Virus record (IMG/VR): IMGVR_UViG_638341196_000009
Strand: one strand, 5' to 3'
Length of the DNA: 12,067 nucleotides
Source of the DNA: a virus
Taxonomy: Duplodnaviria > Heunggongvirae > Uroviricota > Caudoviricetes
The position numbers were made by a program. Of this stretch, positions 6,001 through 9,000 are shown piece by piece. Each line of letters begins with the position of its first letter. Position 1 is the first letter of the stretch.

Positions 6001-9000
6001 GCAATATAAAAAGCTCGCCGTAGCGAGCTAATAAAATGTATTTCTCTGATATTATGTTTATTTGTATTAGCTCAGACTTGACATCACAGGTTTCGTATAT
6101 AGAACATCATCAAATCTGTCAGTTTGCTATGAATGAGATATAGTAATTGAAGAGCTAACCTCGCATGTCAAAGCCAGATTTCTGAAAATCTCTGTAGACT
6201 TCCGGATTGTTGAAGGCCGGAAATTTGGCTTTATGAGCTGCGGACTTTATCGCTTCGCAATAGGCTTTATCACCGTTACTGGTAGATATTTTTAACGCCG
6301 TGCCATCCTGAGAGAATTCCATATGCAACCTGCATTTTTTCCCTTTCCAGTTATGCGGCTCATCAAGTTTGGCATTAATTGCAGCTCTGATTCCCCGCGC
6401 TTGCGCCCCCCATTCATCCTGATCATCCCAGCGTCCTGAACTGCAACTACCTGTAGCAGTAGTTTTGTGGCAATCTGAAGGGTGTAAAGGTGTGCATCCC
6501 GCAACAAAACCGACCCAAAAAGTCAACATAACGATTTTCTTTAATCCCACTTCTTGCTCCTCAATCCATTAAAATCTCAGCAATAGTAGTTGTTACGTCC
6601 GCCACTGGCTCAGAGCTGACTATCCGCTAAATTTAGCTCAGTGCCGTAGTTGTGTCAGAACAAACCTAAGCCGAAACCGTTTATTACAAAACAATAAATA
6701 TCAGGGTTTAAAATCCAGCACCCCATTTTGAAATACTTTATATACTTCCGGCGAAGGGGGGGCAGGTATATCAGCATTCTTTATCGCATTCATCGCTTCA
6801 CGACATAAATCGAGGTCTCCACTTTCTCTTTTAACCTCCAGTAGAAGGCCATTCGGGGCCATATGCATTCTCAGTGTACACTCTTTTCCTGAATACTTAC
6901 TCGCATCCCCGAACTGTTTTTCGATGGCGCTCTTGATTTGATGGGCATACAGACGGATATCCTCACTAACATCAGAAGTACGTTCAGATGAACTCACATA
7001 CTGTGTCTCTATTGCTTTATCGGAGTAATATGATGTACGGTCATGATAATTTGTCGATACAGCATCAGTGCACCCGATAATAATCCCACTAATAATCAAC
7101 GTAAGAATTGATGCGCTACGAAAACCCATTTTTCCTCACATATGTCATATAGTAAAGGATTATATATACCGTTGTTTTGGACGCTCAAACAGCGAATCAG
7201 ATCAAATAAAACGCACATTTGTTAACATTTACACAAAGTCTGCGTGGGATATTCTGAAAGAATATCCATAATGTGGAGAAAATCTATTGAAGTGCATGGT
7301 GCCGGGTGCCTCCCGGTGAATTCAGTACCAGCACCTGAATCCGCGATTATCCCATATACCTACTCGCTGATTGCCCCTCCGCACAGGGGGATTCACCATG
7401 CCAGTTTCTTTTAACAAACTCCCCGCAAACCAGACAACAGTCAACCGCCTGAATTGTGAAGTATTTAAAAATTTTTCCCGCTAACTGATACCCGGCTAAC
7501 AGTCTGGCGTTTTCTTTTTCAGCAACGGGAAAGCAACAACCACCACACCCGCCACCAGCACACCGTCAGCCAGCACTGACATTATCCGGCTGCTGCAATG
7601 CCATTCACAAAAACAGTAAGCAATCACTTTTTACCGTAACAGGTGATAATCCATACCACAGGTCCTGGCTATTCTGTTGTACTCCTGAACAAGAGCAAAT
7701 AATTCTGAATTAGAAACCATGAACTCATCGCAAACCCTCTGAATAGCATCACTATTCAGAATAATAACGTCTCTTCCCGAAAGACGATCAGGAGTACAGA
7801 ACAAAACTGTCAAACGGCTGAAGGCCTTTGCTCGTGCTGCATTGACTATATCAATACGCTGCCTAAGGATGAAACACCCCGACGCCTCATCAATATGCAC
7901 TCTACCCACACCATATGAATGATAAATATTTAATGCTGAAAAAACCATTAGACCGTATAACAAACACTCAATCAATACTTAACAGAACTTTTATTTTTGA
8001 CAAACATATAATATTTTCAACAATATCCTGAGCCAGGTATATTCCAGTATAAGGCTCTGCCGGAAGGAATCTGGAAGAATGAATATGGCGCGCTGTACTG
8101 GATTCGAACCAGTGACCGATTGCTTAGAAGGCAATTGCTCTGTCCGGCTGAGCTAACAACGCTGAATACCGATAATGGACCGCCATCGGGGACCCGCCCC
8201 CGCACCAACAACCCTGTTATCGTGTCGTCTGCTCTTCCTGATAAGCTAATGGCGGTTTGTGATGGTGGCCCTTGCTGGATTTGAACCAGCGACCTGGCGA
8301 TTATGAGTCGCTCGCTCTCACCACTGAGCTAAAGGGCCGGGAGCAGAATAATAACGGTCCGTAATTAATTCCGCAATAAAAAACCCGCTCGGCGGCGGGT
8401 TGTAGAAACTCTTCTAACGTCAGGCATAAAAAGCCCATCGTTATGACGAATTTACCACAGATTCCGGAAAAATCAACCTTGTTACCTAGTTACCTTTTTT
8501 AACTGCCGCTCAGCCCATGCTTCTTCAATATCAAACCGGGTCACCAGCGCATCATAGAATTTCTTAACTGTTTTTTCCCATGACGCGCGTGTTATCTGGT
8601 TTGTCACCTCGCATATAGCATTAAATACCTCCGTTGATGGTAGTCTTTCATAGCCACGACCACCACAACGCTGGCAGTCTCTGATAACAGGCATACCACG
8701 TTTTACCGACTCTTCACGGTGAATGGCGACACCACGCCCACGGCAATCCTTACAGGCGGTGGAAACCTCACCCTTTCCGCCACACTCCGGACAGGCAACT
8801 TTTACCACCTCCCTGACTTTTTTCCATTCTTCCCAGTAAGACGGATACACACCTTTCGTACACTTTGCCCATACCGGCGGCTTACCATCCGGATACTGGA
8901 CCTTGTTTGTAAAAACTACGCTTTCAATAAATTTTTCCCCATAGCAACAAGGGCACTGCTTTTTACTCGCTGCGCTGCGGGCATAATCCTCAAAAGCGTA

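Follow-up and report, generated by a model that had tools for sequence, protein, structure and literature searches.

What occupies a stretch of about 500 bp between two phage genes in which no long open reading frame (ORF) is credible, and does a perfect 21-bp dyad within it act as a regulator site in the DNA or as part of an RNA? The question is raised by positions 7130–7630 of the IMG/VR record IMGVR_UViG_638341196_000009, a 12,067-nucleotide sequence from a tailed phage (Caudoviricetes), the whole of which is referred to here as the window. The window covers the late-gene region of an E. coli lambdoid prophage, which is transcribed from the minus strand; approximately 1.7 kb of it is shared, at 99.5–99.6% identity, with many E. 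coli chromosomes and with phage mEp460. We consider it probable that the interval consists of a small-protein gene of the DUF3927 family, a copy of the STnc100 small RNA (sRNA), and the promoter and ribosome-binding site of a gene for a TolA-C-domain protein, with the dyad forming a hairpin at the 3′ end of the RNA. In the proposed arrangement the DUF3927/TciB-like gene would come first, 3 nt after the stop codon of the preceding gene (phrog_2873), followed by STnc100 and then by the promoter and ribosome-binding site of the TolA-C gene.

A sequence-only reading of the window had described the interval as an ORF-poor spacer that might contain an sRNA, the gene of a small protein or a site bound by a regulator. 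The first two are both present (STnc100 and a 43-residue DUF3927 protein, each on the minus strand), while a regulator site is unsupported. No credible ORF of 60 codons or more is found, as that reading had stated; the only one of this length, at 7068–7271 on the plus strand, has no Pfam match. The term ORF-poor therefore holds at the 60-codon threshold, but about 330 of the 500 bp are taken up by the small-protein and sRNA genes. All genes of the interval lie on the minus strand, in the direction of the late operon. Four other small ORFs (56 and 67 residues on the plus strand, and two of 40 residues on the minus strand) were rejected for want of a Pfam match.

A copy of the STnc100 sRNA

A scan of the whole window with Rfam models places STnc100 (RF02076; the EcOnc27/sRNA103/PasD family) at 7430–7240 on the minus strand. 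The match covers the full length of the model (positions 1–206) and scores 114.5 bits (E 5e-25) against a gathering score of 47; by this match, the sRNA of the spacer is a copy of STnc100. Homologous copies at six other loci score 87–208 bits and are always located downstream of, and co-oriented with, the antiterminator gene Q, tRNA genes or stx. The copy in the window is likewise found downstream of Q, the tR′-like terminator and the tRNA genes and upstream of the holin gene, co-oriented with the late region. The element is common: at least one blastn match occurs in 3,668 of 5,426 complete E. coli genomes (about two-thirds), with a median of 2 and a maximum of 13 places per genome.

STnc100 is known as a multi-copy prophage RNA. 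EDL933 is reported to carry eleven copies, all of which are transcribed in plain culture without induction; a Northern blot confirmed one of them (PMC5331693). EcOnc27, an Hfq-bound sRNA identical with sRNA103, is overlapped by the copy that lies downstream of stx2B (PMC12711010, PMC7873438); for EcOnc27, Hfq cross-linking and analysis of cDNA (CRAC) and Northern data are available, and a convergent-pair architecture has been described (PMC4104026, PMC7873438). PasD of enteropathogenic E. coli (EPEC) shows Hfq-dependent stability and has partners in RIL-seq data, obtained by ligating and sequencing interacting RNAs (PMC8550237), and a relationship between PasD and STnc100 has been proposed (bioRxiv 10.64898/2026.05.13.724894). 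By analogy with these RNAs, the copy described here may act in trans in the lysogen, as an Hfq-associated base-pairing RNA.

A conserved four-helix core

The core of the RNA, at 7401–7294 on the minus strand, is a junction of four helices in which a closing stem encloses three hairpins, as seen by covariation, by minimum free energy (MFE) folding and in the Rfam match. The closing stem consists of 8 bp (7401–7394 with 7301–7294). It is followed by helix 2 with 5 bp (7389–7385 with 7378–7374), a variable helix with 8 bp (7342–7335 with 7325–7318), and helix 4 with 5 bp (7316–7312 with 7306–7302), the last being near-invariant in all copies; a further local helix of 4 bp pairs 7367–7364 with 7346–7343. 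The MFE fold of the window sequence gives the same helices of 8, 5, 8 and 5 bp.

The structure was checked independently of Rfam with 12 diverse cores, aligned with MAFFT and folded with RNAalifold. The consensus contains the four helices, with double compensatory changes in 12 of 28 pairs. In the MAFFT alignment 97.2% of the cells can pair, as compared with 42–47% when the partners are slid and 85.8% after column shuffling (none of 500 shuffles reached the observed value). A covariance model built from this alignment (R1) recovers 136 copies, spread over 100 sources and many genera of Enterobacterales; in the window it has exactly one match, at 7408–7288, with 112 bits. Among the 132 distinct copies, 93.7% of the cells pair against 39–49% for slid partners, double changes are seen in 22 of the 28 pairs, and none of 500 shuffles reaches any of the measures; this larger alignment was fitted to the model and is biased toward the structure, a bias from which the MAFFT-based result is free. 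The conservation and covariation analysis suggested by the sequence-only reading is thus strongly positive in the STnc100 core, and a conserved four-helix junction at 7401–7294 is established by covariation. An invariant U-G pair and frequent G-U pairs among the 132 copies assign the RNA to the minus strand.

A probable promoter of the sRNA

The sRNA is probably transcribed from its own σ70 promoter. A candidate is located at 7408–7444 on the minus strand, comprising TTGACT (7444–7439), TTGTCT (7437–7432), an 18-nt spacer and TGtTAAAAG (7416–7408), the last being of the extended −10 type; the RNA is predicted to start at about 7401. The promoter block is kept in the alignment of E. coli variants, and in many cross-species copies a −35/−10 pair ends 6–8 nt before the closing stem (for example TTGACA-17-AAAAAT-6-stem). 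Binding of RpoD at STnc100 copies has been observed by chromatin immunoprecipitation with exonuclease digestion (ChIP-exo) in Salmonella LT2 (PMC10794520).

Antisense images of the RNA

Several features that had been listed as separate items are spanned by the STnc100 gene: the GC hairpins, the Shine-Dalgarno (SD) sequence and the ATG of a plus-strand ORF. This ORF (MPVSF...FSR; 28 codons at 7398–7484, within a 37-codon ORF that starts with TTG) does exist, with AGGGGG (7385–7390) seven nucleotides upstream of it. However, AGGGGG is complementary to helix 2 and the ATG to the closing stem, and the ORF runs opposite the promoter of the sRNA and this stem; the hairpin CCGGG-tgcct-CCCGG is helix 4, and lies at 7302–7316, one position away from the 7301–7315 first given for it. 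The SD sequence, ATG, ORF and CCGGG hairpin of the plus strand are an antisense image of the sRNA.

That the 28 codons encode a real small protein is most improbable. The good SD sequence with its spacing would speak for such a protein, as would a partial or pseudogene ‘hypothetical protein’ that in many E. coli genomes is placed on that strand, opposite the STnc100 core, by PGAP, the Prokaryotic Genome Annotation Pipeline (equivalent to 7271–7411 (+) of the window; at loci L001 6672–6812, L004 1530–1655 and L008 1502–1647). Against it, the ORF measures 5, 10, 13, 16, 21, 25, 28 or 51 codons in homologous loci, and only 5 codons in the LD22-type copy, which has the same 3′ module. The ORF has no Pfam match, and the conservation of SD and ATG is explained by pairing in the RNA, including G-U pairs on the other strand. 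On the grounds of its variable length and of the missing family match, the ORF was rejected as a gene. The annotated antisense protein is probably a spurious protein family, since the RNA covaries and the reading frame is not conserved.

A small-protein gene of the DUF3927 family

The convergent minus-strand ORF fared differently. It had been noted as 28 codons at 7496–7582 encoding a hydrophobic peptide with a basic tail; the peptide and the end at 7496 are as described, but the frame is open from a GTG at 7627, giving a gene of 43 codons (7496–7627) of which the noted ORF is the C-terminal two-thirds. Its product matches Pfam PF13064 with 95.6 bits (cutoff 25), residues 2–43 being aligned on profile positions 7–53, and phrog_1470, annotated as ‘TciB-like’, with 49 bits (E 7.8e-13). 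From these profile matches, the hydrophobic ORF is a member of the known small membrane-protein family DUF3927/TciB-like, and the conservation expected of a real gene is present. The protein is annotated in the RefSeq record of MLI107 (WP_000562553.1), and in JLK-2012 a tciB homologue occupies the same slot, in the order Q, tRNAs, tciA, tciB, STnc100, esterase, holin.

A resemblance to type I toxins had also been suggested. Pfam gives no match of the Hok/Ldr/Ibs type for the peptide and identifies it as DUF3927 instead, and the Rfam scan shows no match to antitoxin RNA families in 7496–7627; the type I toxin reading was rejected in view of the Pfam match.

The preceding gene (7631–7975, minus strand) matches phrog_2873, a family of unknown function, over residues 10–109 (PHROGs, 214 bits, E 4.6e-64). 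It is a real phage gene, whose true start is likely to be the internal ATG at residue 10; it is unannotated in the RefSeq/GenBank relatives inspected (MLI107 and mEp460). Alignment with these two relatives reveals a 41-bp deletion at about 7650 (between 7652 and 7646, minus strand), flanked by direct TGGAT repeats, by which the C-terminus of the protein, its last eight residues or so, is altered. Because of this deletion between the TGGAT repeats, the stop codon of the gene (TAA, 7633–7631) now lies next to the DUF3927 start, with the GTG beginning 3 nt after it (TAAAAAGTG).

The dyad and the 3′ tail of the RNA

The 21-bp dyad, GGATATTCT-gaa-AGAATATCC at 7247–7267, is located exactly where it had been reported, with perfect 9-nt arms and a 3-nt loop. 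On the strand of the sRNA it reads GGAUAUUCU-UUC-AGAAUAUCC, an AU-rich hairpin of 9 bp (−9.5 kcal/mol) that begins 26 nt past the closing stem. An RNA role is favoured because the dyad is part of the sRNA gene and takes the slot of the family's terminal hairpin, at a matching distance. It is aligned on the terminal hairpin of the RF02076 model in the Rfam alignment, and in other STnc100 members the closing stem and the terminator stem are separated by a median of 28 nt (65 copies). Locally, the hairpin is far more stable than shuffled sequences (z −4.7, 0 of 200).

Beyond the dyad, a second, imperfect hairpin (7245–7211, −9.3 kcal/mol) is followed by UUUUAUUU (7211–7204), so that 7204–7245 on the minus strand represents a candidate weak terminator, with a U-run that lies 45 nt beyond the dyad hairpin. 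An RNA extending from 7401 to 7204 would have 198 nt, a length typical of the family. No canonical terminator, that is, a GC-rich stem-loop with a U-tract, was called in 7130–7300 by the terminator scan. Other variants of the element continue past the closing stem with a short hairpin and then a GC-rich hairpin and U-run (−13 to −17 kcal/mol), which in the Stx2 phage is followed by the convergent AsxR gene. The Rfam scan of the window gave no match to AsxR (RF02703) or AgvB (RF02702) at E values up to 1; AsxR was detected in the control locus VT2-Sakai.

The homology of most relatives, as aligned by blastn, stops exactly at the final base of the closing stem, 7293. Of the 5,426 complete E. coli genomes, 788 carry the 3′ module that begins there, and in 748 of these it is at least 99% identical; the cross-species loci add one Shigella genome, and a single sequenced phage, mEp460, has the module too. 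At 80 IMG/VR loci the module always lies between an STnc100 core and a TolA-like gene, and the identical block from dyad to TolA is joined to two clearly different types of core. It follows that recombination within the invariant sequence of the closing stem produced the junction, and that the dyad belongs to the TolA-like block. TolA-like genes of 66–74% identity have unrelated upstream DNA after a tRNA-like 3′ end, and no dyad.

These observations suggest the following course of events. A lineage-specific 3′ tail would have replaced the GC-rich terminator through recombination inside the invariant sequence of the closing stem, leaving the RNA without a partner of the AsxR/AgvB type. The dyad, as the first of two hairpins in this tail, may help to define or stabilise the 3′ end of the RNA. 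Termination would be weak at the U-run after the second hairpin, and some transcripts would then probably run on into the TolA-like genes; partial read-through of this kind is plausible, as no canonical terminator was called there.

Alternative roles of the dyad

The dyad had been proposed to be an operator or activator site, unlikely to arise by chance and placed upstream of the cassette promoter. The position stands: a σ70-like promoter (TTGAGC-18-TATAAT, 7188–7159 on the minus strand, matching 10 of 12 consensus positions and resting on this consensus match only) precedes the TolA-like gene, 59 bp downstream of the dyad on the coding strand. A DNA site for a dimeric regulator of this promoter, which would serve the TolA-like and lysis cassette, would also account for the perfect 9-3-9 palindrome and for the fact that the dyad always travels with the TolA-like block. 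In addition, the half-site AGAATATCC is found nine times within one mismatch, against 2.1 expected (0 of 200 shuffles reach nine), at 1341, 4340, 6955, 7247, 7259, 7667, 8020, 9455 and 10809. The seven copies outside the dyad are, however, single and scattered rather than paired, and no second full or near-full site is found in the 12 kb with up to three mismatches allowed. The centre of the dyad lies about 105 bp upstream of the predicted TolA-like start, beyond the usual positions of activators and repressors, and no regulator gene is adjacent. Conservation also argues against an operator, as the dyad is absent upstream of the TolA-like genes of 66–74% identity and one of its arms is mutated in a relative of 91% identity. 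Taken with the location of the dyad inside an sRNA gene, at the slot of the terminal hairpin, these points make a role as operator or activator site improbable.

The dyad might also have no function of its own, being a palindrome that is neutral or due to chance and was brought in with the DNA that took the place of the terminator when recombination set the TolA-like moron beside the core. When the window was simulated with a first-order Markov model, 30% of the runs yielded one or more perfect hairpins with 9-nt arms and loops of 0–10 nt (mean 0.53), and the claim that the dyad is unlikely by chance was therefore overstated. The window itself contains five such hairpins (P ~0.01 for five or more), and so the class is enriched and non-random, but the dyad is not individually improbable. 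A neutral origin would fit the confinement of the module to one young E. coli/Shigella lineage, as well as the junction exactly at the conserved closing stem, which is what homologous recombination between mosaic phages is expected to produce; the dyad has diverged like its flanks, and the only changes seen in it are uncompensated. It would leave unexplained both the high local stability of the hairpin and its spacing from the closing stem, close to that of the terminal hairpins of other members. We hold a functionless palindrome to be rather unlikely, but it is a serious alternative.

A number of further findings weigh against the assignment of the dyad to the 3′ end of an STnc100 RNA. The dyad has no adjacent U-run (CCACGCAG follows it), unlike all described Pas/STnc100 terminators, and the stability of the second hairpin does not exceed that of shuffled sequences (z −0.55), with one of its G-C pairs changed to A-C in the 91% relative, which keeps the module. 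The near-identity of the module, in nearly all of the 788 genomes and the 80 IMG/VR loci, leaves no covariation to be seen in the dyad. An A to C variant in two IMG/VR loci and the change of an outer pair from G to U in the 91% TolA-like relative are both uncompensated, and the substitution rate of the dyad equals that of its flanks, as counted in the alignment with the same relative; no positive evidence of selection on the dyad is seen in the variants, divergence and relatives compared. A perfect Watson-Crick palindrome fits a DNA site equally well. As for the RNA as a whole, the promoter TTGTCT/TAAAAG is weak and was not called by the consensus promoter scan, and the thermodynamic stability of the whole fold is unremarkable (z −1.42); stability as the sole marker of an RNA was rejected for this reason, and the case rests on covariation. 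Even so, the 3′ hairpin of an STnc100 transcript is the role that we favour for the dyad.

The core as a possible leader

A different possibility concerns the core, which might act mainly in cis, as a structured 5′ leader of the TolA-like mRNA or as an sRNA and mRNA in one, with an effect on the downstream genes at the level of stability, processing or translation. The stretch from the core to the TolA-like ATG contains no canonical terminator. Many cores in other genera lie directly before an SD sequence and ORF, a tRNA gene or another core; 70 of 135 cores there lack a strict hairpin with U-run within 140 nt, although the strict criterion missed some obvious imperfect terminators. Several of the Rfam matches also cover the core only. 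On the other hand, the TolA-like gene has a good promoter-like site of its own between the dyad and the ATG, a U-run is present after the second hairpin, and the genes downstream of cores are heterogeneous, which implies no gene-specific control; a gene-specific leader was rejected on this last ground. A predominant action in cis appears unlikely.

A bolder version may be put forward as a conjecture, itself quite unlikely. In this E. coli/Shigella lineage, recombination at the invariant closing stem would have replaced the terminator and the anti-sRNA by the AU-rich double hairpin, turning a free-standing Hfq sRNA into a leaky fusion of sRNA and leader, by which the expression of two TolA-mimic lipoproteins in the lysogen is coupled to the promoter of the sRNA. 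More generally, the four-helix core could be a portable cis-acting module (a promoter with a stabilising or processing structure) and not only a regulator in trans. The idea of a portable module comes from the occurrence of the core in tandem arrays, between tRNA genes and directly before ORFs in many Enterobacterales prophages.

Other occurrences of the element

In Pantoea, Enterobacter and other genera, STnc100 cores were seen in tandem arrays of 3–5, interleaved with tRNA genes and with matches to isrI (RF01392) (cross-species loci L054, L085, L101, L034, L088, L099 and L119), and some cross-species cores have a tRNA gene within a few nucleotides. The prophage type that carries the 91% TolA-like variant has two more STnc100 cores after its single TolA-like gene (2621–3010 in L215–L218), in the place that the second TolA-like paralogue occupies in the window. 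On plasmids, 666 places match the first 62 nt of the element. The one inspected (L222 1501–1562, ColV-type, near iroB) is a 5′ fragment with the promoter block, the 5′ half of the closing stem and helix 2, ending at CTGTCTCTTGATCAGATCT and adjoining a disrupted integrase-core gene of the transposase type; Rfam finds no STnc100 match at this plasmid locus.

Genomic context

Upstream of the interval, all on the minus strand, are the antiterminator Q (9303–8482, PF03589), a tR′-like terminator (8401–8382, terminator scan), a tRNA with the anticodon CAT (8338–8263) and tRNA-Arg(UCU) (8162–8086). A sub-threshold Trp_leader match (25 bits, 8375–8481, minus strand) lies between Q and the terminator; it is probably not a trp leader but the short leader transcript of PR′, in the position of lambda 6S/StxS. 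Downstream on the same strand, the first TolA-C-domain protein (6701–7129, 142 residues) matches Pfam PF06519 with 82.6 bits as well as phrog_5772, and has a lipobox-like N-terminus (IIGC). A second, tandem paralogue at 6155–6550 (PF06519, phrog_5772) also has a lipobox-like N-terminus and is followed by a P21-type holin (5960–5688). From their sequences, the two proteins could be TolA mimics that exclude Tol-dependent phages or colicins.

The same gene order is annotated in MLI107, mEp460 and JLK-2012, and a moron site between PR′ and the lysis cassette has been described in prophages of enterohaemorrhagic E. coli (PMC4104026). In this lambdoid prophage, the interval forms a junction within the late-gene moron region.

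Two features near the ends of the window were also noted. A complete hok/sok type I locus at 11475–11798 (minus strand), corresponding to hokD in relatives, consists of sok (11798–11628, Rfam 100.8 bits) and a Hok/Gef-family ORF of 51 residues (11630–11475, PF01848, 78.6 bits). An Rfam match to IS009 (RF02111, 221 bits, 41–239, minus strand) falls within an ORF of 193 residues (1–582, minus strand), and this sRNA family may represent a conserved coding segment.

Implications

The interval is largely ordinary, as it is explained by two elements already known and the regulatory region of the next gene. Only the non-canonical 3′ tail carried by this STnc100 lineage appears, as far as the literature goes, to be undescribed. 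ORF-poor gaps in lambdoid late regions typically correspond to known sRNA genes and very small protein genes, and the antisense images of structured RNAs, with their GC hairpins, SD-like G-runs and short ORFs, can mislead a reading from sequence alone and apparently automated pipelines too. A point of modest interest is the modular exchange at the closing stem, by which the same core is provided with different 3′ ends and downstream morons. In the 788 genomes that carry it, a tail without a canonical terminator may alter Hfq binding as well as termination and the extent to which transcripts reach the TolA-like genes.

Comparison with known systems

The small-protein gene resembles the DUF3927/TciB-like family in its strong profile match, its single hydrophobic stretch and its basic tail. 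As in JLK-2012, it nearly abuts the preceding gene and has an STnc100 copy downstream. It differs from the family in its length (43 residues, as compared with about 54) and in its upstream partner, which is the phrog_2873 protein and not the TerB-like TciA. The name TciB-like, which implies inhibition of cell division or colicin resistance, is an annotation label. With type I toxins of the hok/sok kind the protein shares a short hydrophobic peptide with a charged tail, but the antisense RNA and fold-back mRNA of such systems are not found here.

PasD1 and PasD2 of EPEC E2348/69 (Pearl Mizrahi 2021; Zhu, Shabalina, Storz 2026) are likewise encoded by prophages, close to Q and the holin/lysozyme operon; structural homology with STnc100 is reported for them, and they are Hfq-dependent RNAs of about 80–240 nt. 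Their divergence from STnc100 is also reported to exceed what BLAST can bridge, and they were compared by description only; they are described as having a 3′ stem-loop with a poly-U tract, and lpxR is the usual neighbour.

In the convergent pairs EcOnc27/AsxR and EcOnc06/AgvB (Tree et al. 2014), the anti-sRNA and the back-to-back terminators stand where the window has the dyad module; the forward member is present here, between PR′ and the lysis cassette. The closest counterpart is STnc100/EcOnc27 itself (sRNA103, downstream of stx2B in Sp5/933W). The GC-rich hairpin and U-run of that RNA are replaced here by the AU-rich perfect hairpin and then a weak hairpin with a U-run, a convergent partner of the AsxR/AgvB type is not detected by Rfam in the window, and the downstream neighbour is a TolA-C lipoprotein gene and not the nanS-p esterase or DUF6645. 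The two are alike in the full-length covariance-model match, in a shared four-helix core whose helices 2 and 4 are invariant, in the same promoter-proximal block, and in the moron site between Q/PR′ and the lysis genes, which both occupy in the same orientation.

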